A DNA stretch of 64,000 nucleotides from positions 1-64,000 of IMG/VR virus record IMGVR_UViG_3300019458_000005. One strand, written 5' to 3'. Under the pieces are notes generated by a model that worked only from the letters and a program-made list of their open reading frames with translations, was not told the DNA's origin and ran no database searches. How positions within the stretch are numbered: the first letter of the stretch is position 1; the number at the start of each line of letters is the position of its first letter. Both the position numbers and the translations under genes were made by a program. Shown piece by piece: positions 26,214-58,686 of this stretch. This stretch comes from a virus.

Positions 26214-26282
26214 GTCTCCTCCTTAGATAGACACGCGAGCCGCAGCGCCTCTCCAGGCGGCCGCTACCTCTCGGTGACCTAA

Positions 26283-26296: not shown

Positions 26297-26299
26297 CAG

Positions 26300-29086: not shown

Positions 29087-29253
29087 GCTGCCGCATCAAG
29101 GACTGGGTTCGCCAAGAGCTCGACGAACCCACTGAGCTCGAGTGCCCTGAGAAGCCCGACGAGTCGGTAGACGGCCACGAGCTCTGCAAGACCCACGCGT
29201 TCGCGGTCCGCGCCTTCGCCCGGAGCTGGGAGCCTGCTACGCTGCCGGCATGA
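29083..29253 (+). CDS. hypothetical protein (56 aa)
   Basis: GTG 29083 forms a GTGA overlap. The stop overlaps the next ATG (ATGA). Confidence 0.4.
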   Translation: MSCRIKDWVRQELDEPTELECPEKPDESVDGHELCKTHAFAVRAFARSWEPATLPA

Positions 29254-30890
29254 CCCAGCCTCGCCCAGTCGTCGCAGCGGCCATGCGTTCGATCTACGCG
29301 CCTCCAGCCACAGCTCACAGCATGGGAGACTTCTTTGACCCGCCGCTCGAGGGGTTGCCCTCGCACCGCCGCAAGGGCGGAGGCGAGGCCGCGCCAGGGT
29401 TCGACTACCGCTGGATCGGCGACAAGGACGTCGGCACCGCCGCCACGATCGACGTGATGAAGAAACTGGCGGTCGACGGGAGCACGCACCCAGGGATCAT
29501 CGCGGCCGCGCAGCGAGTCACGCGTCGCCTCCCTAGCAAGGACTACGAGGCCGAGCTGCGCGCGCTGTTCGAGCTCGTGCGGGAGAACGTGCGCTACAAC
29601 CTCGACCCGCGCGCGATGGAGATGGTCCAACATCCGGCTTACACGATGTTCGTGAGCGGAGTCGGGGACTGCTTCGTGGCCGGGACGCAGGTCCTGCTCA
29701 AGGACGGATACCGCACGATCCCGATCGAGGAGGTGCGAGCTGGGGATCAGATCTGGGGAAAGGACCGCTGGTCTCGCGTCGAGAGGTCCTGGTCCAAGGG
29801 ACGCCTGAGGACCTGGCTCGTTCGGCTGAACAACGGGTCGACCATGCGCCTGACTCCAGACCACAAGGTCTACGTGCTCGATCCTGATTCCGGAGAGGAG
29901 TCGAGGATCACGCTTCGTGAGCTCAGGCCTGGCATGCTGCTCACTCAGCCGGAATCTGTGGCTACCGGGACCGGCGAACAGGACCCGGACATGGCCTACC
30001 TGGACGGGGTCTACCTGTCGGATGGATGGGCCGAGCAGAGCCGGTTCGCGATCTCAGGCAAGGACGGGCACCCGAAAGAGGAACAGAAGCGTAGGGTGCA
30101 GGGGATCTGCTCCCACCGTGGGATCCGTACCAGGTGGGCCAAGAAGTACATCTCGATCCTAGATCGTGATCTCGCCCAGCGCATGCTGAGTATGGGCAGT
30201 AGGGCCTTCAACAAGAAGGCGCTCACAATTGACCTCGAACCGCTCGCCTCCACGCAGCTCCTGTCCGGGATCATGGCCGACTCTGGGCGGAACACTTCCA
30301 GAAAGGAGGCTGAGCTACTAGCTTCGGATCAAAACCTCACAGGCAGGACGTTCACGACCACGTCCTACGCTTTGGCTCTCCAGGTGAGAATTCTCCTCAA
30401 ACAGCAGGGAATCAGCTGCGGAGAGAGCTACGTGCCTGACCATGGAGGCGAGGGTACGCATCCGATCTGGCGACTCCAAACGAGACTTCGTGAGCATGAG
30501 ACCAAAACGCATGTCAAGCGGCTCAAGGTGGTCGAGATCATTCGCGACAACGACCCGCGCGAGTGTTTCGACATCTCCACGGACGACCACTACGTGTGGT
30601 TGCCGCAGGCCGACTGGACGGTCTCGAACTGCGACGATAGCGCGGTCCTCCTGGCCGCCCTCTCGATGGCCGCCGGACACGGCGCGCTCTACCGCACGAT
30701 CCGCACCGACCCGCGTCGCATGGACGAGTTCAGTCACGTCTACCCGCTCCTGGGCTACCGCAACAAGGACGGCGCGTTCTGGTTCTCAAGCGACGTAACC
30801 CACCCGCGCCCCGAAGACGCGCGCTGGGGCTGGGAGGCCCCGCAGGAGGTCCGCTACGGCACGGCCGACTGGATGGTCGCGGGGGTCTAG
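29250..30890 (+). CDS. transglutaminase-like cysteine protease interrupted by an intein
   Basis: The extein reads ..YTMFVSGVGD|CDDSAVLLAALSMAAGHG..FSHVYP..FWFSSDVTHP (Cys-His-Asp transglutaminase-core pattern) once residues 141-460 are removed. Confidence 0.7.
   Translation: MTQPRPVVAAAMRSIYAPPATAHSMGDFFDPPLEGLPSHRRKGGGEAAPGFDYRWIGDKDVGTAATIDVMKKLAVDGSTHPGIIAAAQRVTRRLPSKDYEAELRALFELVRENVRYNLDPRAMEMVQHPAYTMFVSGVGDCFVAGTQVLLKDGYRTIPIEEVRAGDQIWGKDRWSRVERSWSKGRLRTWLVRLNNGSTMRLTPDHKVYVLDPDSGEESRITLRELRPGMLLTQPESVATGTGEQDPDMAYLDGVYLSDGWAEQSRFAISGKDGHPKEEQKRRVQGICSHRGIRTRWAKKYISILDRDLAQRMLSMGSRAFNKKALTIDLEPLASTQLLSGIMADSGRNTSRKEAELLASDQNLTGRTFTTTSYALALQVRILLKQQGISCGESYVPDHGGEGTHPIWRLQTRLREHETKTHVKRLKVVEIIRDNDPRECFDISTDDHYVWLPQADWTVSNCDDSAVLLAALSMAAGHGALYRTIRTDPRRMDEFSHVYPLLGYRNKDGAFWFSSDVTHPRPEDARWGWEAPQEVRYGTADWMVAGV
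29670..30629 (+). mobile_element. intein (320 aa) with LAGLIDADG homing-endonuclease domain
   Basis: Starts CFVAGTQVLLKDG. Block B is LTPDHKV. LAGLIDADG-like motifs YLDGVYLSDGW and LLSGIMADSG. Ends DHYVWLPQADWTVSN followed by the +1 Cys. The central part has lower G+C. Confidence 0.75.
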
Positions 30891-31660: not shown

Positions 31661-31662
31661 CC

Positions 31663-36240: not shown

Positions 36241-37803
36241 GTGGCCAACGGGATCCTGGTCAATAACCTGATCGCCGCCGGGCTCGTCCGTCCGCCGGCC
36301 TGGCAGTCGGCCGCGATGCGCGGCTTCGGGATGGGGGGCCTGGGGAAGGGTCCGGCCGGACCCAGCCAGGAGGCCGTGTCCGCCTCCCAGCGGACCTACG
36401 AGACTACCTACCAGGCGATCGTGTCCCTGATCAACCAGATCCAAGGCGCAGCGCGCGAGGTCGATCAGGCCAGCGGCGGCCTCGACGAGCCGGCGGTGCG
36501 CTCGCTGGTCGACGACGCGATGCTGATCTCGCAGGACGCGCAAGACCGCCTCTCGGAGGCGCGCTCGATCTACGAGCTCGAGCAGGGCTGGGTCGAGTCG
36601 GCCGTTGCCGAGCAGGCGCACGGCGGGTGGGCCTTCGGGCGCGAGTTCGTGCTCACCGCGGCCGGCGCGAGCGCGCAGGGCAACCGCTCAGGCGTGCCGC
36701 TCATGGCCTGGAACAAGGACCAGATCCTGGGCGCGGCCGCCAAGGCCCTGACCTCGATCCAGCGCGGCCTGGCCACGAACCTGGGCCAGCTGCGCGGGCT
36801 GCGCGAGGCCGTCCTGACCAAGGTCAAGCTCACCAAGCAGGCTGCGGCGCAGCAGGCCACGATCGACCTGCGTCAGCAGCAGGAGCAGGCCAAGGTCGAT
36901 CAGCTGGCCGCGATCCGCCAGAAGATCGAGGAGGACAAGCTTCGCCGTGAGGAGGAGGCCGCGACCCGAGCGCAGCTGTTCGCCGAACAGCAGGCGCAGC
37001 GCGCGCAGGAGCTCGAGGAGCGCCGGCAGCAGGCCGCGATCGACAGCGAGAACCGCCGCATCGCGATGCAGGAGCAGCTCGAGCAGTCCCGCATCCGCGC
37101 CGAAGAGCAGCGCCTCAACGCGCAGCTCCAGGCCGAGGCGCAGTCGGCCGCGCTCGAGCAGGCCCGCCTTCAGCAGGAGGTCCAGACCTCGCAGGCTGCC
37201 TCGCAGTTCCAGCTCCAGCTGGAGCAGCAGCGGCAGGCCGCGCTCGTCCAGGCCGAGCTCTCGAAGCTCATGCCTCCTCCGCCACCACTCTATGGGGCGG
37301 GCGCGCTCGCAGTACCCGGCTACGGGATGCCCCAGGGCGCGATCCCGCAGCCCATGATCCCGCCGGGCTGGGACGCCTACTCGGCCGCGGCACAGGCCGG
37401 GGCCACGGCGGCGTTCCCGCAGGTGTGGTCGCCGATCGGCCCGCAGGAGCTCCCCACCATGGCCATGCCGGCCCCTCAGGGCGGCTGGTCGCCCGGAGGC
37501 GAGATGTTCGGCATGGGCGCCATGGCTCCCGGGACGTTCTCTCCCGCCTCGGCGGGTCGGATCCAGCCGACCGGCCTCGAGTCGGTAGCCAACTTCCTGA
37601 GCACGTTGGCGGCTCCGGCCGCGAATGTGATCGACGCGGTCCGCGGGACTCCGCGAGCGCCGGCCATGTCGTCCTCGAGCTCGGGTCCGGACCTCGGGAA
37701 CCTGCTCCTGGCCGGCGTCGCGATCGCTGGCGCGATCTACGTGGGCAAGAAGGTCCTGGGCGGCAAGAAGACGAGCCGCTCCCGCAGCCGGCGGCGCCGG
37801 TAG
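36241..37803 (+). CDS. Gln-rich coiled-coil protein with C-terminal membrane anchor and Arg tail
   Basis: GGAGG 5 nt upstream of the GTG. About 170 aa of Q/E/R/A coiled coil. Ends LGNLLLAGVAIAGAIYVGKKVLGGKKTSRSRSRRRR. Confidence 0.7.
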   Translation: MANGILVNNLIAAGLVRPPAWQSAAMRGFGMGGLGKGPAGPSQEAVSASQRTYETTYQAIVSLINQIQGAAREVDQASGGLDEPAVRSLVDDAMLISQDAQDRLSEARSIYELEQGWVESAVAEQAHGGWAFGREFVLTAAGASAQGNRSGVPLMAWNKDQILGAAAKALTSIQRGLATNLGQLRGLREAVLTKVKLTKQAAAQQATIDLRQQQEQAKVDQLAAIRQKIEEDKLRREEEAATRAQLFAEQQAQRAQELEERRQQAAIDSENRRIAMQEQLEQSRIRAEEQRLNAQLQAEAQSAALEQARLQQEVQTSQAASQFQLQLEQQRQAALVQAELSKLMPPPPPLYGAGALAVPGYGMPQGAIPQPMIPPGWDAYSAAAQAGATAAFPQVWSPIGPQELPTMAMPAPQGGWSPGGEMFGMGAMAPGTFSPASAGRIQPTGLESVANFLSTLAAPAANVIDAVRGTPRAPAMSSSSSGPDLGNLLLAGVAIAGAIYVGKKVLGGKKTSRSRSRRRR

Positions 37804-37818
37804 AAGCGAGCGCGCTCC

Positions 37819-38700
37819 ATGCTTCTCACGCTCGATCAGCTGGAGCGGCTCGAGTCGCTCAAGCAGCTCGCCAAGCGAGATCCGCGCTGGGCCATGGCGC
37901 TCGGGCACCGGAACGCCGGCTACACCGGCATGGGTGCCTGGCACGCCAACCACGGGGCGATCTTGCCCGCGCCCATGAATCCTCTGGAGACCAGCGGCGT
38001 AGGCCTGCTTGACCCGCAGGCCTACGCCGTGTTGCCAGCGGCCGCGAACCTGGTGATCAACCCGCCTCGAGCGGTGAACCAGATCAGCGGCATGGGCGCG
38101 CTTCCGGCTATGCGCACGGGCGCGCTCTCCCCGGCAGCCAAGGGAGCCGCGCCAACCAAGCCGAAATCGAACTCGGACTTCGACAGGCCGGTGCCGGACT
38201 CTACCAAGGCCAGCTACACGAGCGCGGTCAAGCAGCTCGATGGCATGGACCCAGGCCCCGAGAAGGTCGCGATGGCCAACTCGCTTCGGAGGCAGCTCGA
38301 CGGGCTGCCGGACTGGGGTCCGGACACGAACAGCTACTTCTTCAAGGACTACGACAGCTGGCTCGAGCTCAGTCAGCGCGTGGACGCGGCCCGGATGTCC
38401 TACGTCCCCTCGGGCGCACAGAGCCCGCTCGGACCCGGCGCAGGAGACGGGGGCGGTGGTGGCGGAGGGTTCGGCTCGGCGCTCGACTCGATCGGGAGCT
38501 TCCTCTCCACGATCTCGGGCCCGGCGGCCGACATCATTCGCTTCTCGCGGAACCAGCCGTCACAGCCCAGCTTCGTGGCTCCTCCGCCTGATCCAGGCTT
38601 CCCGTGGGGGAAGTTCGCGATCGGGGTTGGAGTGGCCGCCGGGGTCACGCTGGCTCTTCAGGCCACGAAGAAGCCCGCACACAAGGGAAGGAGCCGCTAG
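37819..38700 (+). CDS. tail-anchored membrane protein (293 aa)
   Basis: Ends FAIGVGVAAGVTLALQATKKPAHKGRSR. Shares the module L(E/D)S(V/I).(N/S)FLST...PAA(N/D)(V/I)I with the preceding protein. Confidence 0.65.
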   Translation: MLLTLDQLERLESLKQLAKRDPRWAMALGHRNAGYTGMGAWHANHGAILPAPMNPLETSGVGLLDPQAYAVLPAAANLVINPPRAVNQISGMGALPAMRTGALSPAAKGAAPTKPKSNSDFDRPVPDSTKASYTSAVKQLDGMDPGPEKVAMANSLRRQLDGLPDWGPDTNSYFFKDYDSWLELSQRVDAARMSYVPSGAQSPLGPGAGDGGGGGGGFGSALDSIGSFLSTISGPAADIIRFSRNQPSQPSFVAPPPDPGFPWGKFAIGVGVAAGVTLALQATKKPAHKGRSR

Positions 38701-39029
38701 TGCCATCGCTCACCGAGACCATCGGCCTGGCGCGCATGGAGCAGGAGAAGGTCAAGATGATGCTCTCGGCCGCCTCGGCCGCGAGCGCCATCGGCCGCCC
38801 TGCCCAGGCCGCCGCTATCGGCTCCCAGGCCGCGCAGCAAGCCTCAGTCGGCGAGAAGCTGATCATGAAGGTGGCCAGCGCTGGCCAGGCTGCGTTCGCC
38901 GACGAGGCTGCCGAGATCATGCGGCCAAAGCGGTCGCCGCTGCCTTGGCTGATCGGCGGTGTCGTCGGACTCGTGGGCCTGGGGATCCTGTGGAGAAGGA
39001 GCCGGAGCTCCAAGAAGCGCAAGAAGTAG
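38700..39029 (+). CDS. tail-anchored membrane protein (109 aa)
   Basis: GTG 38700 overlaps the upstream TAG. Ends LPWLIGGVVGLVGLGILWRRSRSSKKRKK. Confidence 0.6.
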   Translation: MPSLTETIGLARMEQEKVKMMLSAASAASAIGRPAQAAAIGSQAAQQASVGEKLIMKVASAGQAAFADEAAEIMRPKRSPLPWLIGGVVGLVGLGILWRRSRSSKKRKK

Positions 39030-39033
39030 CTCC

Positions 39034-39390
39034 ATGCTCGCCGACCTGACCTACCGCATGCTCCAGTCGAAGCAGGTCCAGCCGGCCCTCCAGGGAGTCG
39101 GCCTGGGGATCCTGCCCGCGATCCTGGGCGTGCTGGGGGCGGTCGGGCAGGTCGGGACCTCGCTGGCGAGCCCGTTTCTTGAGGAGGCCTCGAAGGGCGA
39201 ACAGCGTGTGGTCGACGCGGCCGCCAGGACATCGATCGCGCAGGAGCTGCAGGTCAGAGCTCAACAGAAGGCGCTCCGAAACCAGCAGCTGGCGCTCGTG
39301 GGCGCCGGACTCCTGGTGATCGGAGGCGTGGGGTACTTCTTCTACCGGCGGCGGAGCCGCTCAACGACCAAGAAGCGGGGGCGCAAGTGA
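39034..39390 (+). CDS. membrane protein with C-terminal anchor (118 aa)
   Basis: Hydrophobic GVGLGILPAILGVLGAVG, plus a C-terminal LALVGAGLLVIGGVGYFFYRRRSRSTTKKRGRK. Confidence 0.6.
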   Translation: MLADLTYRMLQSKQVQPALQGVGLGILPAILGVLGAVGQVGTSLASPFLEEASKGEQRVVDAAARTSIAQELQVRAQQKALRNQQLALVGAGLLVIGGVGYFFYRRRSRSTTKKRGRK

Positions 39391-39701
39391 GCGGCATGGG
39401 CTACATCTCGGCGGGCTACCTGGCTGGCGCCGCCCCCTCGGGCTTCGGCTACCTGGGACAGGATCAGCGGCAACCGCAGTTCATGCAGTCGCAATCGCAG
39501 CAGACCAGCCAGTCCACGTCCGTGAACGCCTCGGCGACCGGCGGGTCGGTGACCGGCTCAGCCAACGTGGGCAGCCGTGTTGGTCCCACCACCTACTACG
39601 GCGGGGGAGGCGGGGGAGGCCAGATCAACTGGGTCCCGATCGCGCTGGGTGTAGCGGTGGGCGTGGCGCTCATGATCTACCTGAGGAGCCGAGGCAAGTA
39701 G
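39387..39701 (+). CDS. tail-anchored membrane protein (104 aa)
   Basis: GTGA-coupled start. Ends INWVPIALGVAVGVALMIYLRSRGK. Paralogue of the next gene. Confidence 0.6.
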   Translation: MSGMGYISAGYLAGAAPSGFGYLGQDQRQPQFMQSQSQQTSQSTSVNASATGGSVTGSANVGSRVGPTTYYGGGGGGGQINWVPIALGVAVGVALMIYLRSRGK

Positions 39702-39703
39702 CC

Positions 39704-39991
39704 ATGCCGCTCTCGGTCGAGGCCATGCAGAAGCTGCAGCACATGTCTGGCTTGCGCCAGATGGGGCGGTTCTCTGGCCTCGGTCAGAGCGCCGCTCAGC
39801 AGTCCTCGCAGCAGACGAACCAGGCCACGACCGTCAACGTCTACGCAGGCGGCGGCAACATCAGCGACTCGGCCAACGTGGGCAGCTCGGTCGGGAAGGT
39901 GATCCAGGCCGCGCAGCTGAACTACGTCCCGATCATGCTCGGTCTCGCGGGAGCCGCCGCGCTGTGGCTCCTGACCGGGAGGCGGCAGTGA
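39704..39991 (+). CDS. tail-anchored membrane protein (95 aa)
   Basis: Ends LNYVPIMLGLAGAAALWLLTGRRQ. Shares QQ.SQ.T...T.VN..A.GG....SANVGS.VG with the preceding protein. Confidence 0.6.
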   Translation: MPLSVEAMQKLQHMSGLRQMGRFSGLGQSAAQQSSQQTNQATTVNVYAGGGNISDSANVGSSVGKVIQAAQLNYVPIMLGLAGAAALWLLTGRRQ

Positions 39992-40308
39992 GGCTCAACG
40001 CTCCAGCGACCAACCGCGGCATGTTCGTGATCGCGATGCCAAGTCGCGGATCCAGCGGTCTGGGAGCTTCCGCGATCCAGGAGATGTTCGACAAGCTCTT
40101 CAACAAGAAGAAGTCGAAGGCGCGCGAGGAGAAGCGCGATCTCGCGGTCAAGAACTACGGCGAGACCGAGCAGGTCGCGCAAGCCGCCACCTTCCAGATC
40201 CAGCAGGCCTCACAGAAGAACGTCATGACCTACCTGGTGGCCGGAGCAGCCGCAGCCGGAGCGCTGGTTCTCCTGGCTGAGCTGCTCTCGCCCCCGAGGG
40301 GACGCTAG
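39988..40308 (+). CDS. tail-anchored membrane protein (106 aa)
   Basis: GTG 39988 forms a GTGA overlap. Ends MTYLVAGAAAAGALVLLAELLSPPRGR. Confidence 0.55.
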   Translation: MRLNAPATNRGMFVIAMPSRGSSGLGASAIQEMFDKLFNKKKSKAREEKRDLAVKNYGETEQVAQAATFQIQQASQKNVMTYLVAGAAAAGALVLLAELLSPPRGR

Positions 40309-40309
40309 C

Positions 40310-41317
40310 GTGCAGGCCGAACAGGAGCTCTCTGACGCCGAGTGGCTGCGGAGGATCCGGCTCAAGAATCGCCAGGAGCTCGGGCTCGAGGGCCCGCAGG
40401 GAGTCGCGACGATGGACGGCAACGTGAACGGCATCGGCGACTTCATGTACATGAACGCAGCCGCGGGGGGCGTGCCCAGCCCCGAGCAGGACCTGCTCGC
40501 GTACTACGCCGGTCGCCAGGGCGGGAACGCGGACGGCTGGCAGCCGTCCATGATCGACCCCAGGCAGGGCACCTACCACCAGATGCAGATGCCCACCCAC
40601 GCCAACTACGTCGGCCAGGAGGTCGCCGGACAGGCCGTCTCAGGCCTGGGCTACATGGGCGCGGTGGGCGTCTCGGCTGATCAGAAGGCTCAAGCCACCC
40701 TGGCGGTCGAGGGCGCGATCCGCGAGTCCGACCTGCTGTCTCAGCAGACGAACAACGTCTCGGCGGCGCGCCTGATCCTCGAGGCGCAGCGCTCGAGGCT
40801 CTCGAGCCTGAACTGGACCGACAGCTCGTGGGGCGTCGTCGGGCCGCGCTACTCCAGCCGCGCCGACCTGCTCAAGAAGCTCACCGAGGCACAAGCGCGC
40901 GTGATCGCCCGCTCGGGCGCGGTCCGTGAGGACGGCAAGGCGATCTTCGACCCTCGCTCCGTCAACCCGACCACCGGCAAGGCGCGCGTGGACAGCCAGA
41001 TCGGCGCAGCCGCTGGGTCGCTGGTCCAGTCCGGCAAGGAGACTGCGGCCGAGGTCGGTGGCCTCCTGGGAAGCCTCTCCAAGGTCACACAGTTCTTCCT
41101 GGGCTCTCCAACCAGAATCCTGGTCACGACCAGCATCGGACTCGGGGTCTACGGCCTGGTCTACACCGACCTAGGCAAGAAGATCAGCCGGAAGGTCTTC
41201 GGTAGCAAGAAGAAGAACCCTCCGGCTCGTAACCGCCACAAGAAGGCCGCGGTCCGCAAGAACCCCAGCCGCAAGCGGCGCAAGCGCTACCACGAGAACG
41301 ACTCGAGCGACGAGTAG
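40310..41317 (+). CDS. membrane-anchored protein with long Lys/Arg tail (335 aa)
   Basis: ILVTTSIGLGVYGLVYTDLG followed by KKISRKVFGSKKKNPPARNRHKKAAVRKNPSRKRRKRYHENDSSDE. Confidence 0.65.
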   Translation: MQAEQELSDAEWLRRIRLKNRQELGLEGPQGVATMDGNVNGIGDFMYMNAAAGGVPSPEQDLLAYYAGRQGGNADGWQPSMIDPRQGTYHQMQMPTHANYVGQEVAGQAVSGLGYMGAVGVSADQKAQATLAVEGAIRESDLLSQQTNNVSAARLILEAQRSRLSSLNWTDSSWGVVGPRYSSRADLLKKLTEAQARVIARSGAVREDGKAIFDPRSVNPTTGKARVDSQIGAAAGSLVQSGKETAAEVGGLLGSLSKVTQFFLGSPTRILVTTSIGLGVYGLVYTDLGKKISRKVFGSKKKNPPARNRHKKAAVRKNPSRKRRKRYHENDSSDE

Positions 41318-45927: not shown

Positions 45928-46163
45928 GACGACCGATCGCGCCTAACAGCCCGCTCTCGCGGCTCAAGATCGCCGGCTACGTGGTCTCGGCGGTGCCGTT
46001 CCGCTGCGGGACCTGCCAGTACGCCGGGCCGGCCGTGCCAGGCCTCCTGACTCTTGACGACCGGCCCATGCACCACTGCAAAAAGCTCGACGCAGGCGTC
46101 GACCCGGACAAGGGCTGCTGCGACCTGTGGAGCAATCCGAACGAGGAGCTAGCTCGCGCATGA
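45924..46163 (+). CDS. Cys-rich hypothetical protein (79 aa)
   Basis: ATG 45924 forms an ATGA overlap. CGTC..HHC..CC motif. Confidence 0.5.
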   Translation: MRRPIAPNSPLSRLKIAGYVVSAVPFRCGTCQYAGPAVPGLLTLDDRPMHHCKKLDAGVDPDKGCCDLWSNPNEELARA

Positions 46164-51150: not shown

Positions 51151-52503
51151 ATGGCCAGACGACATCCCAAGAAGAACCCCCAGCTCCTGGCCGTGGTCGG
51201 CGCGGCCGGCCTGCTGGGGATTCCGAACCCGCCCCGCAAGCACCATCCGGCCTCCATGTGGCCGACACTTCGAGAGTCGATTGGCGCCCTGCACGCCAAG
51301 TGGAGCGGAGTTCCTGGCGCAGAGCCACAGCTCTCGCAGGCCCAGATGGAGAGCCTGATGCAGCACTTGGCGAGCTGCCGGTCCTGCGCCAAGAAGGCGG
51401 TCGCCAGCGGCATCCCTGAATACTCGATCCAGGCCTACCAGCGTCCCGCCTGGAAGACGAACCCATCCAGCGCTCGAGCTTGCGACCCCTGCAGGACCGG
51501 CAACCACGCGGCCTGTCACTCGGACATGGCCCCCGGGGCGTGCGGTTGTTGGTGCTGCGCGACCGGCACCCAGCGCTACGAGGGATCGGCGCCGGTGGTG
51601 CCCAGGAAGCAGCGCGTGTGGCTGCAGGGGAAGCGGAACCCGCTCAAGACCTGCGATCCGCACGCACGGCCCATCCAGCCGTCGGTCGCGCAGAAACTCC
51701 TGGGCAAGAAGGTGCGCGTCCACTTGAACCTCCACAACGGCTGCTACGTGATCAGCCTCCAGGGGAAGGTTGTCGGCTACACGCGCGCGCTGGGGCTCGC
51801 GAACGTGAGGAGCAAGGTCAGCAAGGCCGGACACCGTCGCTGTCGGGACGAGATGACCCGTAACGTCCACGCCCACCTCGAGGGCCATCTGATCGACGTG
51901 GGTGATCACCTGCTGAGCGAGTCACCTCCGCCGGGGTCTCGCGCGATCACCTACAACTGCCTCACCCATCCGCCGTGCTTCTTCTACCGCGACAGCGGCG
52001 AGTGCTTCGAAAGCGCGGCCGTGGCGTTCTTCGGTCCACGCGGGGTGGTCGTGGGCGGCGGTCGTGCGGAATCCAGGAGCAAGCGCCGAAACGCCCCCAC
52101 GAAGCCCTCGAAGCGCAACCTGGGCCCCATGCCCAAGGTGGTCGGCGAGGTCGACATCTCCGAGTTCGAGCGCATGTTCCCAGGTAGCGAGCTCCGCCAG
52201 GGCCAGGACCGCTACGGCCTCTGGCACGGCGAGGAGGCCGACGCCGGGATTGTGATCCGCCAGGACGACGGAAAGCCGGGCACGACCCGGAAGCTAGTCG
52301 TAGGCCTGGGCGCGACGCCCAAGACCACCTACCAGGTCCCATGGGACGGCACGACCAAGGAGGACCACGTGTGGGAGCACGAGCACCCACCCGGCAAGGA
52401 GCCACTCTTGGTTCTCGACCCGACCACCAACGTCGTCAGCCAGCTGCCTCGGAATCCCCGAGCGCGGATCGACGACTTCTTCCGCGATCCGGGGCACGAC
52501 TGA
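51151..52503 (+). CDS. Cys-rich hypothetical protein (450 aa)
   Basis: ATG 51151. MARRHPKKNPQ.., CRSC..CDPC..HAAC..CGCWCC cluster. Several (K/R)NP motifs. Confidence 0.6.
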   Translation: MARRHPKKNPQLLAVVGAAGLLGIPNPPRKHHPASMWPTLRESIGALHAKWSGVPGAEPQLSQAQMESLMQHLASCRSCAKKAVASGIPEYSIQAYQRPAWKTNPSSARACDPCRTGNHAACHSDMAPGACGCWCCATGTQRYEGSAPVVPRKQRVWLQGKRNPLKTCDPHARPIQPSVAQKLLGKKVRVHLNLHNGCYVISLQGKVVGYTRALGLANVRSKVSKAGHRRCRDEMTRNVHAHLEGHLIDVGDHLLSESPPPGSRAITYNCLTHPPCFFYRDSGECFESAAVAFFGPRGVVVGGGRAESRSKRRNAPTKPSKRNLGPMPKVVGEVDISEFERMFPGSELRQGQDRYGLWHGEEADAGIVIRQDDGKPGTTRKLVVGLGATPKTTYQVPWDGTTKEDHVWEHEHPPGKEPLLVLDPTTNVVSQLPRNPRARIDDFFRDPGHD

Positions 52504-52940
52504 TGAACCGCCGCAACGCCGAAAGCTCCGACGCTCGAAGACGGCGCGCTTCACGCGGCCGCCGTCAGACCGGTTCGCGCGAGGACGCGGAGCGCGAGTA
52601 CCTCGAGCTACTGAGGCAAGGCAGGCCTCCGGACTTCACAGAGCGCGCACGGCAGGTCATCGAGGAAGGCTGGAACGGCCAAGACTGGCGCTCAGCAAAC
52701 TGGCAAGAAAACAGTGGAGATATCCCATCTGAGAGATTCCTGGTAATCACCAGCGCAGTCGACTACGACGCCGAACACTGGTTCAACGGCGCGAACACCC
52801 TCGCTGAAGCAGCGCACTTCTTGATTGACGCTCTTCACTCCGAGTACCCTGACATGGTGAGTTACGTCATCGACCTGATGTTCATGGAAGAGGTGCCGGC
52901 CCGCTACCGCGCCGAGGTCGGCGGGATCCTGTCTCCGTGA
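52503..52940 (+). CDS. hypothetical protein, leader-family member (145 aa)
   Basis: TGATG-coupled start. MNRRNAESSDARRRRASRG..EREYLELLRQGRPP. Tandem paralogue of the next gene. Confidence 0.6.
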   Translation: MNRRNAESSDARRRRASRGRRQTGSREDAEREYLELLRQGRPPDFTERARQVIEEGWNGQDWRSANWQENSGDIPSERFLVITSAVDYDAEHWFNGANTLAEAAHFLIDALHSEYPDMVSYVIDLMFMEEVPARYRAEVGGILSP

Positions 52941-53434
52941 GACATCGAAACGCCAGCTCGGATGACCGTGCGCGCCGAGCTGAGCGCTACGCTCGAGGAG
53001 GGGACCGCGCCCAGTTCGAGGTGCATTACCAGGAACTTCTCCGGCAGGGTCGGGCGCCGTACTACAACGCCCAGGTGGCCGAGCTCCTGAACTCGGAGTT
53101 CAATCTGCCGTTCGTGCCGGAGTGGATCCGAGATCTAGACCTGTCTGAGTTCATTCAGGCCGAGGTGGTTGGGCCAGGAGAGCTGGGCGGCGTATGGTTC
53201 CGCTACCTGGTGGTCGTGTGCGGCGTAGTCCACAGCTCGGCTGATGCGTGGCTGACCAGCGGCAAGACGCTCAAGGAAGCCGCAGAGCAGTGCCTGATCC
53301 AGCTGCGCGGCGACATCGATCTTCCTTGGCAACCGGTCCTGGTGATCGACCTGGCGTTCATGGAGCCAGTCCCGTTCGACATCGGGATCAGCGTAGGAGG
53401 CGAACAGGCCTGGCAGAGCGAATGGGATCGCTGA
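52937..53434 (+). CDS. hypothetical protein, leader-family member (165 aa)
   Basis: GTGA-coupled start. MRHRNASSDDRARRAERY..VHYQELLRQGRAP. The C-terminal ..LKEAAEQCLIQL..VLVIDLAFMEPVP parallels ..LAEAAHFLIDAL..SYVIDLMFMEEVP in the previous protein. Confidence 0.6.
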   Translation: MRHRNASSDDRARRAERYARGGDRAQFEVHYQELLRQGRAPYYNAQVAELLNSEFNLPFVPEWIRDLDLSEFIQAEVVGPGELGGVWFRYLVVVCGVVHSSADAWLTSGKTLKEAAEQCLIQLRGDIDLPWQPVLVIDLAFMEPVPFDIGISVGGEQAWQSEWDR

Positions 53435-53595
53435 CCACGATCCCCCTTGCCAACTCGCCACCTGAAAGGCTAGCCTAATCCTTCGTCGATAGCCCTTGCG
53501 CCCGCAGGCCAGTCATCCGGCCCCACGCGCTCCGAGGCTCAGCTAGATCCGGCCGTCTCCTAGACCGCCTGTGATCGCGAGCTCGGAGACGCAAC

Positions 53596-54888
53596 ATGAT
53601 CGAGTGGTGGGCGCTCGCGAACCCCCCGCGCCGGAGTCGGCGCCGTCGTCGCCGCTCGAATCCGCTCCCCGCAGGCTGGGGCGGAACCAAGAAGCCCAAG
53701 AAGGCCAAGAAGCGCTCCGGCAAGTCGGCCGCCAAGGCCCGCGCTGCTCAGCAGCAGCGCGACCGCGAGTCGCGCGCCAAGAACCTGCTCTCGGCCTGGA
53801 ATCGCGCTTCGAAGAAGAAGAAGCGCAAGAAGAGCAAGGCGACCAAGAAGTCCAAGAAGAAGTCGGCGCGTAAGGTCGCGCCGAAGCGCAAGAAGAAGGC
53901 CGCGCGTTCGCGCCGCGGCGCTCAAGGAGGGCCCGTGGCCAAGAAGAAGCGGAAGAAGTCCGGCAAGAGGAAGAGCTCCAAGCGCTCGGCCGCCGCCCGC
54001 AAGGGCGCGCGTACCAAGGCGCGCAACAAGGCTAAGCGGAAGGCCGCCGCCAAGAAGGCCGCCCGCAGCCGCGGGAAGAGCGGCGGGGGAGTGCGCAAGG
54101 CCGCGCGTCGTCGCGGCCGGAAGCGCCCGGCTCGCGCCAAGGTCCGGAAGACCCGAGGCGGGAAGGGCCGCATCGTCTACGCCAAGGGCAAGCGCCTGCG
54201 CTGGCGCCGCACCGGCCGCCACTCAGGTCGTCTCGTGATCCGCGGAAATCCGGGCGGGTCAGGCGGGATCCAGGGGAACCTCAAGGCCCTCCTCAAGCCC
54301 GAGCTGTACATCGACGCGGCCCAGGTCGCGCTCGGGCTCGGTGGAGCGCTGGCGCTCCCGGCGCTCCTCGCCCAGAAGATGGGCAAGCCGATGCTCAACC
54401 GCGGCCTCGTGGGCGTGGCGGCGACCGCCGTCTCGTCCGCGGTTCTCGCGGCGGCCGCGGCCGCGGCCGGACAGCGCGCGCTCTCCGGTCGCCTGTTCGC
54501 CGGTGGCGTGCTCGCGGCGGTTGTCAAGCTCGCCGTGCAGGTCATCCCGCCGTCGCTCCTCCAGAAGATCCTCCCGCTCAACGAGCTCAACCGCGGCGCG
54601 ATCGCTGCGGCTCCGGCCGCGAGCGGTGCGGTCAACGGGATGGGCTACTACGGGAGCGGCGTGGGCAACCTCGTGCCCTACTCCGCGATCAACGGCATGG
54701 CCGACCTGCTCACGCCCGAGCAGATGATCGCAGGCGAGGCGTTCTACGGGCGCATGAACGGCATGGGTCGCACCGGCGACTACCTGCAGCTGGGCATGGG
54801 GGACTACCTCCAGTTCGGCCAGGCGGCCAACGTGCCCCAGTTCACGTCCGTGCTCGACAGCTTCAACCCCGGGGGTGAGGCCTTCTAG
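53596..54888 (+). CDS. H1/protamine-like Lys/Arg-rich domain fused to a multi-helix hydrophobic domain
   Basis: GGAGA upstream of ATG. About 200 aa of KKPKKAKKRSGKSAAKARAA..KKKKRKKSKATKKSKKKSARK..RRRGRKRPARAKVRK. Then hydrophobic helices (AQVALGLGGALALPALLA; GLVGVAATAVSSAVLAAAAAAAG; LFAGGVLAAVVKLAVQVI). Confidence 0.7.
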   Translation: MIEWWALANPPRRSRRRRRRSNPLPAGWGGTKKPKKAKKRSGKSAAKARAAQQQRDRESRAKNLLSAWNRASKKKKRKKSKATKKSKKKSARKVAPKRKKKAARSRRGAQGGPVAKKKRKKSGKRKSSKRSAAARKGARTKARNKAKRKAAAKKAARSRGKSGGGVRKAARRRGRKRPARAKVRKTRGGKGRIVYAKGKRLRWRRTGRHSGRLVIRGNPGGSGGIQGNLKALLKPELYIDAAQVALGLGGALALPALLAQKMGKPMLNRGLVGVAATAVSSAVLAAAAAAAGQRALSGRLFAGGVLAAVVKLAVQVIPPSLLQKILPLNELNRGAIAAAPAASGAVNGMGYYGSGVGNLVPYSAINGMADLLTPEQMIAGEAFYGRMNGMGRTGDYLQLGMGDYLQFGQAANVPQFTSVLDSFNPGGEAF

Positions 54889-54971
54889 CTCGAGAGGGCC
54901 GGCCCGAGTGCGTTCCGGCCCGCATCCAACCAGCGCTGATCTCGGTCAGAGCTGGGTGGTCTCCAGAGCCT

Positions 54972-55006
54972 CCCCCGAGGACACGGATGGTCCGGGTCCT
55001 CGGGGG
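54972..55006 (+). terminator. hairpin downstream of the Lys-rich protein gene
   Basis: CCCCCGAGGAC-13 nt-GTCCTCGGGGG: 11-bp perfect stem. Confidence 0.4.
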
Positions 55007-55135
55007 GCAAAGGCTCCGGCGACATGACAGCGCGAGAGGGATCTGGCAGCGAGGCGCTCCGCCCCTGACCGGAACAGCGACCCGGCGCAATCCACAGTGG
55101 CTCACCCGATGAGGGAAGCCCAAGGAAAGAACAGC

Positions 55136-55801
55136 ATGGGTCCTCAAGGCATGCCGGTCGTCGCGCTGCCCACTCCCGGAGTGGTCGGCGGGCGTCCTCG
55201 CAAGCAGCCTCTCGTCGACACCGAGGTGATCGGTGGGACGGCGGCTGTCCCGGCGGAGATCAACATCTACGCCAACTTCAGCCAGTTCCGCATCGCGCCC
55301 ATCGTCAACACGAACATCACCCAGACGAAGCAGTACGGGCGCGATACGAACCTGAAGAGCTCCGGCGGCGGCACCTTGCCGCAGTCGTCGTTCTTCTACT
55401 GGTACAAGAGCCGGATCGTCCTCAAGACGTACCTCACCGCGCTCAACACCAGCGGGAACTGCGTCGCGTACGAGGAGATCCAGCGCCTCAGGTTCCTGGG
55501 CGCCTGGTTCTTCAACTTCCAGCAGACCGAGCTGGTCGTGATGCCGCTCGACGAGCTCCCCTCGGGCGTCGGCTCGGCCGCCGGCTCGACCAGCTCGATC
55601 AACAACATCAACGCCCCGAGCCTCACCTGGGGCCCGTGGGACGGTCGTGACATGACCGTCTCGGGTCGCCCGGTTGGCATCGAGGCGCTGCAGCAGTTCA
55701 ACGTGAACATCAAGTGGCCGCAGACCACCGGCTTCACGCCGACCCTCGACTACTTCATCTCGTCGCGTCTCGACGGCCTGCTGCTCCTGGGCATCAGCTA
55801 G
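55136..55801 (+). CDS. beta-rich structural protein (221 aa); candidate single jelly-roll capsid/penton protein
   Basis: AAGGAAAG upstream of ATG 55136. No helix-rich or low-complexity regions. Followed by the strongest hairpin in the window. Confidence 0.5.
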   Translation: MGPQGMPVVALPTPGVVGGRPRKQPLVDTEVIGGTAAVPAEINIYANFSQFRIAPIVNTNITQTKQYGRDTNLKSSGGGTLPQSSFFYWYKSRIVLKTYLTALNTSGNCVAYEEIQRLRFLGAWFFNFQQTELVVMPLDELPSGVGSAAGSTSSINNINAPSLTWGPWDGRDMTVSGRPVGIEALQQFNVNIKWPQTTGFTPTLDYFISSRLDGLLLLGIS

Positions 55802-56022: not shown

Positions 56023-57084
56023 GTGCAGGCTCAGCTCCACGTCGGCGAAAACGCCTGGAACCCCTACGCGAACGTGCCCTTGCTTATGCGCGGGCCCGAT
56101 CCGCGCACCGGCAAACAGAAGACCTACGTCAACCGCGGCAAGTACTCGCAGAAGTTCTGCGAGTTCACCACGCAGACCTACCCGATCACGGTGCCCGCCA
56201 ACGCGCGGAACCGGACCTCGATCGTGCCTCAGGCAGACCAGGGCGGCGCGGGCGACGTCGAGTTCTACCAGTGGTGGTCGGCCTCGACCGGGCAGTACGC
56301 GGTGATGCTCACGAACCTGGCCATGGGCGGGATCAAGCTCATGAACCAGCCGGTCGAGAGCTCGCTGATCTTCGGCAACGGCCCCCAGCTCCCCGGAAAG
56401 CTCCTCCAGCCGGTGTTCGTGGCCGCGACCGACGCGCTCGACGTCGAGCTCACCGACCTCTCGGGCCTCTCGAACGACGTGCGCCTGGTCGCGCATGGCT
56501 GCCAGATCGTCGACCCCATGAACACCCTGGGCGTCACCCAGCAGCAGGTTCGGGCCGCGATGTACAACCCGAACGTCGTCCCCTACTGGCTCACGTTCGA
56601 CTCGGGCTCGCAGGTGACCGTGGCCGGTAGCGCCTCGGGCACCGAGTTCACGATGACCATCCCCTCGAACGGCGACTTCAACAGCTGGTCGCTCGTGGGC
56701 CGAACCACCGCGCCCACCGCTCTCACGGTCGAGATCTTCGAGGGAAACCGCCGCAGGTTGATGAACGGCCCGATCCGCTTCGACCAGTGCATGTCGACCA
56801 CCGGCCAGACGGCCTCGCTGAACGCGGCCTCGATCCCGTTCGTGTGGAACTTCTCGCACACGTTCGAGCGAAAGACCCAGCTCGTGTTCCGCTTCACCGA
56901 CACCAGCGCCTCGCCCCAGGTGATCTCCTGCGCGCTATGGGGACAGATCGTCTACTACGATCAGAGCCCGCCCTCGCTCACTGCGATCAACAGCCTGCGC
57001 GGAGTAGCACAGGCCATGGCGCCGGCTTACGCGGCGCCGTCCGGCCAGATGGTCGGCATGCGCGGCCTCCGGGGCCGGCGGTAA
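56023..57084 (+). CDS. beta-rich structural protein (353 aa) with internal tandem duplication; candidate double jelly-roll major capsid protein
   Basis: GAGAGG 7 nt upstream of GTG 56023. The two halves share IKLMNQPV..(L)TDLSG..GCQIV and RRLMNGPI..(F)TDTSA..GQIVY at similar spacing. Confidence 0.45.
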   Translation: MQAQLHVGENAWNPYANVPLLMRGPDPRTGKQKTYVNRGKYSQKFCEFTTQTYPITVPANARNRTSIVPQADQGGAGDVEFYQWWSASTGQYAVMLTNLAMGGIKLMNQPVESSLIFGNGPQLPGKLLQPVFVAATDALDVELTDLSGLSNDVRLVAHGCQIVDPMNTLGVTQQQVRAAMYNPNVVPYWLTFDSGSQVTVAGSASGTEFTMTIPSNGDFNSWSLVGRTTAPTALTVEIFEGNRRRLMNGPIRFDQCMSTTGQTASLNAASIPFVWNFSHTFERKTQLVFRFTDTSASPQVISCALWGQIVYYDQSPPSLTAINSLRGVAQAMAPAYAAPSGQMVGMRGLRGRR

Positions 57085-57093
57085 GAGGCCACC

Positions 57094-58317
57094 GTGCTCA
57101 ACCACCGCGTCTCGCCGCCAGTGCCGTTCCACCTGCTTCCGCCCCACATCCAGGCGGCGATCGCGGCTCGCGCTCAGCGCGTGAACGGTCCGTCCGGTCC
57201 TCCCGGCGGAGGCACAGCTCCGGGAGGTATGGCTGGCCTGGGGAACTTCGGCATCGCTGGCTCGCCTGAGCCATGGTCCCTGCCTCCCTACGCTCAGCGC
57301 CTTCCGCTGGTCGCTCGAGCCGGCCAGCTGGGACAGGCCGGCGCGGCCCCGGAGCTCCTTCCGGCCGGCCCGGACGCGGCCAACCTCCAGGCCGCCGATC
57401 CGGTTGGCCCCGCGAACCCTTGGGCCGGGACGCCGCTCGAGGACCTGCCGCTCCTTGAGGCGCTGAAGCTCGCGTCGCGTCAACTGGTGTGGATCCAGCA
57501 CCCGTCGCCGATCGACAGCAAGCCGCTCCTGGGCACGCGCGAGCAGTACACCGAGACGGCCGTGATCGCCCCGCCCACCGACATCGCTTCCGCTGGCGCG
57601 ACCGCTGGAGCTCAGGCCTTGGCCGATGGCTACAGCTCGAGCTCGGGAGAGGTGACCGCGGTTCTCACGCCAGCCAACGCCGCCGACTTCGAGACGATAT
57701 TCCAGTTCACTGTCCCTCCGGGGCGCGCGTTCCTGGTGTGGTCGGTGGCCGGCGAGTGCCACGACTACCTGGGCATGGCGAACGTGATCAAGTTCCGGGT
57801 CCGGGTGGGCACGACCCTGATCGTCCCCGAGACGCAGCTGGGCTTGATCGGCGCGCCCTCGAACCAGCTCGTCGTGCAGGAGATGGCCTACGAGAACCAG
57901 ACGGTGTTCTTCGAGGGCCGAAACCTCGACGGCGAGTCCGGCACGCTCGTGACCGCTTACCTCCTGGGCTGGAGCTTCCCACTCAAGGGCACCGGCCTCG
58001 ACTGGGGCGACCTCTCGAGCAGCGGCAGCTCGACCTGGGGCGAGCGCGAGGGACCCGAGGCCATGGACCCCGGCGAGCCGGTTCGGATCCCGCTCTCGCA
58101 GGCTGCGCCAGGGAACCCACGCTACGGCGGCCTCCCGGTGTGGACTCACCCGCTCAACGGCGAGGCCGTATGGGCGCCGGTCCAAGGCATCCCTGGCCTC
58201 TCCGACCCGCGTTGGGCGGGTTACCGCATGACCTGGACCGGGACCATGTTCGTGGTCGATCAGCACAGCCAGCCGCTGCCTGGGTTCGACCTGGCCACGA
58301 TGACGATCTACGGGTAG
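57094..58317 (+). CDS. structural protein (407 aa): Gly/Pro/Ala-rich N-terminus plus beta-sandwich-like C-terminal domain
   Basis: AAGAGG upstream of the GTG. FQFTVPPGRAFLVWSVAG..VIKFRVRVG..NQTVFFEGRNLDGESGTLVTAYLLGWSFP. Confidence 0.55.
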   Translation: MLNHRVSPPVPFHLLPPHIQAAIAARAQRVNGPSGPPGGGTAPGGMAGLGNFGIAGSPEPWSLPPYAQRLPLVARAGQLGQAGAAPELLPAGPDAANLQAADPVGPANPWAGTPLEDLPLLEALKLASRQLVWIQHPSPIDSKPLLGTREQYTETAVIAPPTDIASAGATAGAQALADGYSSSSGEVTAVLTPANAADFETIFQFTVPPGRAFLVWSVAGECHDYLGMANVIKFRVRVGTTLIVPETQLGLIGAPSNQLVVQEMAYENQTVFFEGRNLDGESGTLVTAYLLGWSFPLKGTGLDWGDLSSSGSSTWGEREGPEAMDPGEPVRIPLSQAAPGNPRYGGLPVWTHPLNGEAVWAPVQGIPGLSDPRWAGYRMTWTGTMFVVDQHSQPLPGFDLATMTIYG

Positions 58318-58320: not shown

Positions 58321-58686
58321 ATGAGCGTCTCGATCGGACACTTCTGGCTGCGAGTCAAGGACGTGAGCGCCTCCGAGCGCTTCTACGTACTCCTGGGGCT
58401 CGAGCTGGTCGAGCGCCTGCGAAATGTGACGGTGCTCGGGGCACGCGGCCACTCGCATGTGTGCCTCCAGAAGAGCCTGACCACCCAGCCGCGTCGGCTT
58501 CCGATCGACTTCATGGTCGACAACCTGGAGGAGACGCTGTCCGTATTCAAGCAGGCCGGGTTTGCTCCTTCACAGATCGAGCGCGACCGCGAGTCCGACC
58601 ACCGCTCGTTCGTGGTCAAGGACCCCGACGGACACGAGGTCGAGGTGATCTCCAGCCATATCCCGATCCCACAGGCAGTGGAGTAG
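58321..58686 (+). CDS. VOC (glyoxalase/bleomycin-resistance/dioxygenase) family protein
   Basis: IGHFWLRVKDVSASERFYVLLGLELV.. ..SFVVKDPDGHEVEVI, the classic VOC pattern. Confidence 0.65.
   Translation: MSVSIGHFWLRVKDVSASERFYVLLGLELVERLRNVTVLGARGHSHVCLQKSLTTQPRRLPIDFMVDNLEETLSVFKQAGFAPSQIERDRESDHRSFVVKDPDGHEVEVISSHIPIPQAVE

Follow-up and report, generated by a model that had tools for sequence, protein, structure and literature searches.

A conserved phage protein family that joins a polybasic arm to a hydrophobic-helix module: a candidate membrane-anchored genome-binding protein encoded beside a putative capsid gene

INTRODUCTION

Eukaryotic double-stranded DNA (dsDNA) viruses such as adenovirus have well-known core proteins that are polycationic and condense the genome. 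To our knowledge, no such protein has been described for a bacterial virus with an internal membrane, and we know of no phage in which a polycationic core function is combined with a membrane anchor. Here we describe a gene for a 430-amino-acid (aa) protein with a polybasic arm and a hydrophobic module, found in IMG/VR virus record IMGVR_UViG_3300019458_000005. The gene occupies 53596 to 54888 of the plus strand in the stretch that we analyzed, positions 1 to 64,000 of that record (64,000 nucleotides [nt]; here called the window). We tentatively propose that its product binds the genome while anchored in a viral membrane.

Several described systems share one or another of these features. The J protein of the Microviridae (phiX174 J), the Arg-rich capsid arms of small viruses, and the C-terminal domain of the hepatitis B virus (HBV) core protein are polybasic; they neutralize packaged nucleic acid, and a hydrophobic or folded portion attaches them to the capsid. 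Protein p16.7 of phage phi29 has about 130 aa, with an N-terminal anchor and a folded DNA-binding domain. This integral membrane protein organizes phage DNA replication through binding of DNA and terminal protein (PMC4974454). Adenovirus protein VII occupies a pocket of the hexon cavity; the docking site of its precursor is the inner face of the major capsid protein (MCP) (bioRxiv 10.1101/857581). VP11 of the Thermus phage P23-77 is reported to aid assembly via lipid-protein interactions, according to the title of the work of Pawlowski et al. 2015 (title in PMC6356626).

How DNA enters the lipid vesicle of circular-genome phages is unsettled. The PM2 model merely postulates an interaction between a membrane area and nucleic acid, in which a virus-specific membrane area is thought to interact with supercoiled DNA as the particle forms; the PRD1 model has the vesicle form by pinching off from the cytoplasmic membrane (PMC6356626). 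For particles of the non-tailed vibriophage NO16, no DNA-binding proteins were reported other than histone-like ones of the host, and their true virion status was left open (PMC13552765). The Salisaeta phage SSIP-1 is tailless, with an internal membrane, a T=49 architecture, a 44-kb circular dsDNA genome, and almost no database relatives.

RESULTS

A genuine gene for a two-part protein

The gene and the parts of its product are listed below. Hydrophobicity is given as the Kyte-Doolittle (KD) 19-residue maximum and as a sum on a crude, position-independent Hessa scale.

53585..53588 (+), ribosome-binding site GGAG, 7 nt 5' of the ATG
53596..54888 (+), gene for the 430-aa polycation and hydrophobic-helix protein (open reading frame [ORF], third-position GC content [GC3], hydropathy)
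53596..53628 (+), N-terminal motif MIEWWALANPP, a hydrophobic strand followed by NPP (family comparison)
53629..54246 (+), polybasic arm, aa 12 to 217, built of basic-run-Asn-Pro units (composition, family comparison)
53974..54081 (+), conserved island of 36 residues within the arm, SSKRSAAARKGARTKARNKAKRKAAAKKAARSRGKS (alignment with L008 and P0017)
54241..54258 (+), boundary motif R-G-N-P-G-G; Asn invariant in the five-sequence alignment A5, R-x-N-P-G in most members
54265..54309 (+), amphipathic helix GIQGNLKALLKPELY, family pattern G.LK..LK.LL (family alignment)
54316..54372 (+), hydrophobic helix 1, AAQVALGLGGALALPALLA, aa 241 to 259 (KD 1.75; Hessa sum 4.0 kcal/mol)
54406..54471 (+), hydrophobic helix 2, LVGVAATAVSSAVLAAAAAAAG, aa 271 to 292 (KD 1.99; Hessa sum 1.6 kcal/mol)
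54493..54561 (+), hydrophobic helix 3, LFAGGVLAAVVKLAVQVIPPSLL, aa 300 to 322 (KD 1.95; Hessa sum >5 kcal/mol)
54562..54885 (+), C-terminal tail with ILPLNEL, NGMGYYGSG, TPEQMIAGEAFYG, GDYLQLGMGDYLQFG, VPQFTSV, and the end NPGGEAF (sequence, family comparison)

The ORF starts with ATG, and its product has a mass of 45.7 kDa and an isoelectric point (pI) of about 12. GC3 in this frame was 0.84 to 0.94 along the ORF and 0.90 overall (stop to stop), compared with 0.47 to 0.81 in the other two frames, and first- and second-position GC resembled that of other genes. Since the GC3 bias lies in this frame, the antisense ORFs that overlap the gene are mirror-frame shadows. Codon usage is as expected for a 65% GC genome: the basic part has 49 Lys codons, every one of them AAG, and CGC predominates for Arg. 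The basic half is 70% G+C, like the rest, and its Lys/Arg richness is therefore not due to an A+T island. Consensus scans for promoters and terminators gave nothing that exceeded the shuffled expectation. We conclude that 53596 to 54888 is a genuine gene.

No other ORF of the window is as rich in K/R; the peak is 16 basic residues in 25, and a high level extends over about 200 aa, well outside what chance would give. Residues 1 to 215 include 49 K, 45 R, 35 A, 20 G, and 18 S (K+R, 44%; K/R/A/S, 68%), and residues 1 to 217, with 49 K, 46 R, and only 3 D+E, carry a net charge of +92. The first-pass annotation, made from the letters of the window alone, had described the first ~210 residues as almost pure K/R/A/S; the strong enrichment is real and the wording slightly too strong. 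All four K/R-rich peptide strings that it quoted are in the protein, as are the hydrophobic helices, which number three, and the Gly/Met/Tyr-rich end. Its comparison with histone H1 and protamines holds for composition and fails for homology. The C-terminal domain of H1, protamines, TolA domain II, and AlgP-like proteins have a similar K/R/A/S/P-rich composition and are probably disordered or DNA-bound helical, but they lack Asn-Pro punctuation. A Pfam scan of the full protein at E ≤ 0.1 returned 0 families, hence no Linker_histone and no globular winged-helix domain. Nor did Pfam match it to protamine P1 or P2, which have about 50 aa, compared with 430 aa and a 213-aa nonbasic half here. A match to TolA (E = 0.016; 14 bits versus a 59-bit cutoff) was rejected as compositional.

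Asn-Pro pairs punctuate the arms throughout the family described below. The arms of 34 members contain 104 such pairs, compared with 10.5 ± 3.2 in residue shuffles (maximum, 20), an enrichment of about tenfold, and 55% of the Asn residues in these arms are followed by Pro. From what is known of helix capping, each N-P of the arm may begin a short cationic helix. The island SSKRSAAARKGARTKARNKAKRKAAAKKAARSRGKS aligns well among close relatives, which shows that the arm is more than pure low complexity. We also considered an origin of the arm in tandem DNA repeats and rejected it; only arrays of 9 to 12 nt in 2 to 5 copies were found.

The C-terminal 213 residues are near neutral and contain three hydrophobic Ala/Gly/Val/Leu segments, followed by the Gly/Met/Tyr-rich tail. 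On the crude Hessa scale, helices 1 and 2 are comparable to the tail anchors of neighboring proteins (0.9 to 4.4 kcal/mol), and they alone score as transmembrane-like in this protein. No segment below 5 was found in the candidate capsid protein, the 221-aa and 407-aa proteins encoded next to it, or the 1080-aa reductase. Helix 3 has a conserved GG and, in most family members, a Lys or Arg in its middle. The module thus appears membrane-like from its sequence, with either three spans or a hairpin plus an interfacial helix.

A hidden Markov model (HMM) of the tail gave no significant match among the other proteins of the window. The best other match was a 299-aa protein of the related locus L015 (E = 0.49), and the GMGD link to other membrane proteins is therefore at the level of a motif only. 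In the L015 protein, the layout is mirrored: LGMGDWV stands at the N terminus, a basic NP tail at the C terminus, and one hydrophobic helix between them. This layout puts GMGD and basic NP on opposite sides of one helix, which hints at an odd number of spans.

The protein belongs to a conserved family

When the C-terminal half was used in a word-indexed search, a single relative emerged, P0001, with 52% identity. The P0001 ORF, on a 1.5-kb contig, extends 5' as an Arg-rich arm that is open at the contig end. The first-pass annotation had suggested a search for homologues of the same two-part architecture, and a HMMER search with a profile of these two sequences brought 33 cluster representatives to light, 11 of them with E < 1e-10. 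At least 36 homologues keep the two-part architecture, and the 33 profile matches and four syntenic copies share the order of the parts. Across the family, the arm has about 60 to 335 residues, a K+R fraction of 0.21 to 0.56, and a K:R ratio from about 1:1 to 1:15. Because the part order is constant while arm length and K:R vary, selection appears to act on charge and not on sequence.

A hydrophobic start that leads into NP was found in 14 of 34 members (for example, VIEYVVLNPP, MLELIVLNPP, and MFQLLALNPP), frequently of the type M-x-(I/L)-E-(Y/L)-x-V-L-N-P-P; members whose sequence begins inside the arm may have miscalled starts. After the arm, the shared layout runs from the R-x-N-P-G boundary through the amphipathic helix, helix 1 (A....G.G.AL.LP), a conserved P.LNRG(W).GV loop, helix 2 (SAVS.A...), and helix 3 (.GGL.A...K/R.....P) to an (S/T)P.Q(L/M).AGE motif. 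Each member has one to four GMGD(Y/W)-hydrophobic motifs, and E-x-F/Y stands at the C terminus in 27 of 34. Architecture, motifs, and synteny with the capsid-like protein are conserved. These comparisons indicate that the protein is part of a conserved family and goes beyond a low-complexity or compositional accident.

Pfam, PHROG, and NCBIfam scans and profile searches of the PDB, performed with the protein and with the family, returned no matching family. When the region, the C-terminal half, and the capsid candidate were compared with 50,697 phage records by megablast and tblastn, none gave a match. Neither PHROG nor Pfam linked the protein to holins, spanins, or other lysis families, and its length of 430 aa and location in a structural module do not fit such families either. 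Judged by these searches, the family appears to be new and to belong to no described family.

The gene lies in a conserved module with a candidate capsid gene

The following genes are found downstream. Structure predictions were made with AlphaFold2 (AF2) and are described by the predicted local distance difference test (pLDDT) and the predicted TM-score (pTM).

55136..55801 (+), 221-aa neighbor, syntenic in all related loci (AF2 pLDDT, 41)
56023..57084 (+), 353-aa candidate MCP with a predicted two-beta-sandwich fold (AF2, Foldseek)
57094..58317 (+), 407-aa conserved downstream protein, with relatives of 252 to 275 aa in L015 and L017 (homology)

The first-pass annotation placed the gene directly upstream of capsid-like genes. 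This setting proved to be a conserved module, which includes a 353-aa protein with a predicted two-jelly-roll fold. The order of the 430-aa protein, a protein of ~220 aa, one of ~325 to 353 aa, and a further conserved protein was found in the window and in L001, L005 to L007 (three JGI contigs), L008 (a Logan contig), L015/L016 (a 60.7-kb ENA contig from Hainich groundwater, to judge by its record name), and L017/L018, the last two pairs being much more divergent. The first three genes of this order were seen in six independent metagenomic loci. Homology of the neighbors across loci was evident in tblastn (1e-46 to 1e-88). An alignment search with the capsid candidate found one JGI metagenome locus only and no locus in GTDB genomes or IMG/VR.

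The AF2 model of the 353-aa protein, built from a ten-sequence alignment, is all-beta with two sandwich halves (pLDDT, 69.8; pTM, 0.70). In Foldseek searches of the PDB, it matched, at full length and with a probability of 1.0, peptidylglycine hydroxylating monooxygenase, a two-jelly-roll enzyme. With the same probability, it matched the MCP of Singapore grouper iridovirus (SGIV; TM-score relative to the query [TMq], 0.36) and chain L (392 aa) of a cryo-electron microscopy (cryo-EM) structure of the PRD1-like phage PR772 (TMq, 0.39), which we take to be the major capsid protein P3. The best match among predicted viral structures was I1ZBI0, an unnamed protein of 256 aa (E = 1.3e-9; TM-score relative to the match [TMt], 0.65), and the SSIP-1 structural protein gp47 has exactly that length. 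Tail-fiber-like matches had TM-scores of 0.15 to 0.25, compared with 0.36 to 0.65 for capsid-type matches. We therefore regard the 353-aa protein, with moderate confidence, as a candidate capsid protein of the double-jelly-roll type. The 407-aa protein is possibly a vertex or penton protein.

Between the gene and that of the 221-aa protein lies an unusually long spacer of 247 nt (54889..55135, +). It folds as a long G+C hairpin without a U-tail (minimum free energy, −119 kcal/mol; z = −2.5 versus shuffles) and may act in RNA stability or attenuation, setting the ratio of the two products.

Several other observations concern this block. The N terminus of the 221-aa protein (55136 to 55230, +; MPVVALPTPGVVGGRPRKQPLVDTEV) resembles the C terminus of a 101-aa protein encoded on the opposite strand (63729 to 63800, −; VRIVQLPQPGMVIGRPRREPLYDTLGW), and the 221-aa homologues of L005, L008, L015, and L017 show the same cross-match. 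A glyoxalase-fold protein is encoded in the middle of the structural block (58321 to 58686). A fiber- or spike-like protein of 715 aa is encoded at 59942 to 62089 (+); apart from a globular C-terminal end, it is nearly all Gly/Ala/Thr/Ser repeats (GGAVTV.GG...). A giant protein of 1084 to 1152 aa with glycosyltransferase and methyltransferase domains (L003, 18179 to 20333; L005, 16434 to 19712; L008, 14758 to 18012) is conserved 3' of the structural module in this phage group.

The element resembles SSIP-1

Two further regions of the window bear on the nature of the element.

29250..30890 (+), transglutaminase-like protein, intein-split, homologue of SSIP-1 gp34 (Pfam, blastp)
36241..41317 (+), five or more genes for proteins with a C-terminal hydrophobic helix and K/R tail, in the same plus-strand block as the gene under study

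The gp34 protein of SSIP-1, annotated as structural, has a Cys-His-Asp core like that of transglutaminases. In blastp, it matched the transglutaminase-like proteins of L005 (E = 2.8e-16), L015 (1e-12), and the window (2e-6), and the relatives encode this protein 5' of the module described above. In the window, its exteins lie at 29388 to 29672 and 30627 to 30878 and flank an intein with Pfam Intein_splicing/Hint matches. The insertion is at the conserved G-C-G-D-C-D region of the catalytic Cys, which suggests that the enzyme is essential for the virus. SSIP-1 thus shares a structural protein with the element and is its sole cultured relative.

The products of 36241 to 41317 have 520, 293, 141, 143, and 335 aa, with tails such as ...GGVGYFFYRRRSRSTTKKRGRK. 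Some carry GMG or GIGDFMYMN...SPEQ motifs near the N terminus, and a long Q/E coiled coil is present in the 520-aa one. From their sequences, they are probably viral tail-anchored membrane proteins. SSIP-1 also has many tail-anchored membrane proteins; those of the window have K/R tails.

The same genome is present as an 81,695-bp Logan contig (SRR7811943), the ends of which map 28 nt apart, at about 32050 to 32077 of the window, within an intact reductase gene. By coordinate arithmetic, the map is therefore circular, at about 81.67 kb; loci L003 and L011 cover the rest of this 81.7-kb genome. A minus-strand block (1 to 26 kb) encodes an SNF2 helicase, ThyX, a PD-(D/E)XK nuclease, Rad52, a PIF1 helicase, a C5 methylase, and Mom. 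The plus-strand block (26 to 64 kb) encodes a class II ribonucleotide reductase, DUF6884, and an L5-gp82-like protein. A tyrosine integrase is encoded just past window position 64,000 (L003, 11175 to 12161).

Scans with Pfam (30 ORFs), PHROGs (20), and NCBIfam (8), together with the precomputed Pfam matches for every called gene of three 20-kb loci, yielded no family of terminases, portals, HK97-type capsids, tape measures, or baseplates. A search of about 80 of the 81.7 kb and of the relatives' loci likewise revealed no packaging ATPase with a canonical Walker A motif. The only P-loop ORFs are those of the PIF1 helicase (14426 to 16210, −) and a protein of 814 to 826 aa (555 to 3035, −; GVRLGGKS), and no homologue of the SSIP-1 ATPase gp40 was found here. 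An FtsK/HerA-type packaging ATPase is stated to be conserved throughout Varidnaviria (PMC13552765), and in these scans the element lacked that part of the realm's virion module. Overall, the element looks like a tailless, SSIP-1-like, membrane-containing phage that is probably a distant relative of SSIP-1.

Other features of the genome were noted. A repeated peptide module (MR.RNASSD.RARRAER..DR and (NP)DER(M/L)R.LERRAQLGD.EA...L.AAQ.RS), either a paralogous family or a motif, occurs in at least seven proteins. Their genes lie on the plus strand at 41363 to 42277, 42278 to 44326, 44479 to 45927, 46127 to 48127, 52503 to 52940, and 52937 to 53434 and on the minus strand of L003 at 10637 to 10942, and several of the proteins end in basic NP tails (...ERGNPRRPSRRKRGRR and ...KRNPRRNS). 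The class II reductase (31615 to 34857, +; TSCPD domain) has an extra ~150 aa in its barrel domain, starting with CVPGHTLILTRDG; the insert may be a second (mini-)intein, and Pfam gave no intein domain for it. The C5 cytosine methylase (16490 to 18175, −) and the Mom-family protein (23745 to 24593, −) suggest that the phage DNA is modified.

DISCUSSION

A proposed role and its rivals

We propose, at somewhat short of an even chance, that the 430-aa protein is a membrane-anchored polycation of the virion that binds and neutralizes the genome and so links DNA to the membrane. Its arm, roughly 60 to 335 residues of K/R runs with Asn-Pro caps in the family, would bind dsDNA electrostatically and without specificity, neutralizing and compacting it. 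The amphipathic helix and helices 1 to 3 would sit in the viral lipid bilayer as the anchor, and the GMGD(Y/W)...E-x-F tail would contact another virion component, possibly the capsid lattice across the membrane. By our arithmetic, an 81.7-kb duplex has ~163,000 phosphates, and a few hundred copies at +92 each would neutralize a sizable share of them. Because the map is circular and no packaging ATPase is recognizable, the protein may act in the way envisaged in the PM2 model. DNA binding, membrane insertion, topology, virion residence, and any role in encapsidation are all inferred.

Several points weigh against this proposal. The absence of a packaging ATPase comes from motif and profile scans, which a divergent ATPase could escape. 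The capsid fold depends on one medium-confidence model with TM-scores of 0.36 to 0.49 relative to the query, and the model of the 221-aa neighbor, with its pLDDT of 41, gave a meaningless Foldseek list. The identity of I1ZBI0 with SSIP-1 gp47 could not be confirmed (a cluster look-up gave UniParc/NCBI identifiers only), and hhalign found no sequence signal between the capsid-candidate and 221-aa families and SSIP-1 gp47 and gp45. Helix 3 is marginal as a transmembrane segment because of its conserved mid-helix Lys/Arg, in line with its crude Hessa sum of >5, and the Ala/Gly-rich helices could instead form a soluble or peripheral bundle. Finally, if the vesicle arises by pinching off, as the PRD1 model has it, its lumen is topologically periplasmic, and by the positive-inside rule the +92 domain would be expected to face the capsid.

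That last topology, with the arm on the cytoplasmic, capsid-facing leaflet, would suit a capsid-membrane glue like VP11. In such a role, the arm would lie between the shell and the outer leaflet and bind anionic lipids and the acidic underside of capsomers, without DNA, and the protein would nucleate or stabilize shell assembly on the vesicle. VP11 is likewise basic and encoded 5' of capsid genes, with lipid-protein contacts reported in the title cited above, and the recurrent h-x-h-N-P units could serve as multivalent docking strands. However, VP11 is unrelated in sequence (E = 3.6), lacks hydrophobic helices, and is not low-complexity, while 90+ charges per copy and a five-fold range of arm length exceed the needs of lipid or capsid binding and are typical of nucleic-acid-binding arms. 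We consider a glue function unlikely. The Ala/Gly-rich helices, with their conserved Gly pairs, resemble membrane-active or oligomerizing helices and would fit a protein that is packaged with the DNA, inserts its helices into the host envelope to help form or line a conduit, and escorts the DNA with its polycation, much as PRD1 has membrane-tube proteins and other phages have ejection and pilot proteins. The gene does lie in the structural module, and internal-membrane phages deliver their genomes by membrane proteins (PMC6356626), yet we found no homology to known ejection, pilot, or tube proteins. Nothing separates such a role from that of a static linker, with which it is compatible and not exclusive; as an explanation in its own right, we give delivery a slim chance.

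The protein could also act outside the virion, as a DNA binder anchored in the host membrane that brings replicating or condensing phage DNA to the assembly site there. Precedents are phi29 p16.7 (PMC4974454) and PRD1 P10, a nonstructural factor enriched on a virus-specific membrane patch (PMC6356626). The protein is homologous to neither, and its gene stands beside capsid-like genes, not in the replication block on the minus strand (1 to 26 kb), with synteny to the capsid candidate held across divergent relatives, which makes an organizer of this kind quite improbable. It is less probable still that the element is a divergent tailed phage or a nonviral mobile element and the protein an internal head protein or a nonmembrane protein. 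Many tail-fiber-like jelly-roll proteins appear in the Foldseek list of the 353-aa model, a Gly-rich, fiber-like protein of 715 aa is encoded downstream, and ~82 kb is unprecedented among bacterial double-jelly-roll or SSIP-1-like viruses. Those tail-fiber matches, however, score well below the capsid-type matches (0.15 to 0.25 versus 0.36 to 0.65), the hallmark families of tailed phages (terminase, portal, HK97-type capsid, tape measure, and baseplate) are absent from the scans, and the element shares sequence homology with a structural protein of SSIP-1.

Significance

If the membrane-anchored linker that we propose exists, it is a concrete candidate for a missing link, that is, for what brings DNA into the vesicle of membrane-containing circular-genome phages. 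The family marks an uncultured phage group with genomes of 60 to 82 kb, at the upper end about twice the size of SSIP-1, from groundwater and other metagenomes. A bolder and rather unlikely reading is that it marks an unrecognized lineage of ~60- to 82-kb tailless membrane phages that encapsidate a circular genome without a packaging motor. There, the membrane-anchored, protamine-like protein would capture DNA on a virus-specific membrane patch and condense it while its GMGD...E-x-F tail recruits the jelly-roll lattice on the opposite face. Were this so, bacterial viruses would have their first example of a virus-encoded, chromatin-like core protein, which would provide a molecular handle on how internal viral membranes acquire cargo.

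Comparison with known systems

The first-pass annotation knew of no described phage counterpart. This stands insofar as no relative of the family has been described, but the concept has precedents in P23-77 VP11, phi29 p16.7, and phiX174 J. In SSIP-1 (L010, JN880423), the relative of the element, the structural protein gp41 (25740 to 26612; pI 9.5) has MRENP... and ...VRENPQG, the latter just before a C-terminal hydrophobic helix. The structural protein gp44 (33840 to 34565), encoded at a position equivalent to that of our gene, contains AQNP... and HENPSGS before a hydrophobic middle. These NP motifs beside hydrophobic helices recall the R-G-N-P-G-G boundary. SSIP-1 nevertheless has no polycationic protein, since gp44 is acidic and gp41 has only 17% K+R, and it differs in its 44-kb genome and its Walker-A ATPase gp40; the family profile matched none of the SSIP-1 proteins.

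VP11 of P23-77 is a basic protein (pI 10.7) of an internal-membrane phage, and its gene lies 5' of two major capsid protein genes. The 430-aa protein is likewise a basic protein (pI about 12) encoded 5' of a capsid gene, although that gene is a candidate and the resemblance is functional only. VP11 is shorter (187 aa), less basic (K+R, 27%), and not low-complexity, and it has no hydrophobic helices, NP units, or GMGD/E-x-F tail; hmmsearch with the family profile gave E = 3.6. Like phi29 p16.7, the protein would be a phage membrane protein that tethers DNA to a membrane, but p16.7 is an early, nonstructural protein that acts in replication and has no homology to it. The J protein, the Arg-rich arms, and the HBV core domain are far smaller, come from other virus classes, lack membrane-type helices, and gave no family match.

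Adenovirus VII, with V and mu, is a polycationic, genome-condensing protein of a dsDNA virus with a double-jelly-roll capsid, as the protein described here would be. Pfam gave no Adeno_VII match for the protein, and the family profile gave no PDB sequence match to it. Adenovirus has a eukaryotic host and no internal membrane, and its pVII lacks hydrophobic helices and is cut by the adenoviral protease. By analogy of function, the 430-aa protein would most resemble adenovirus VII, with a membrane anchor added.

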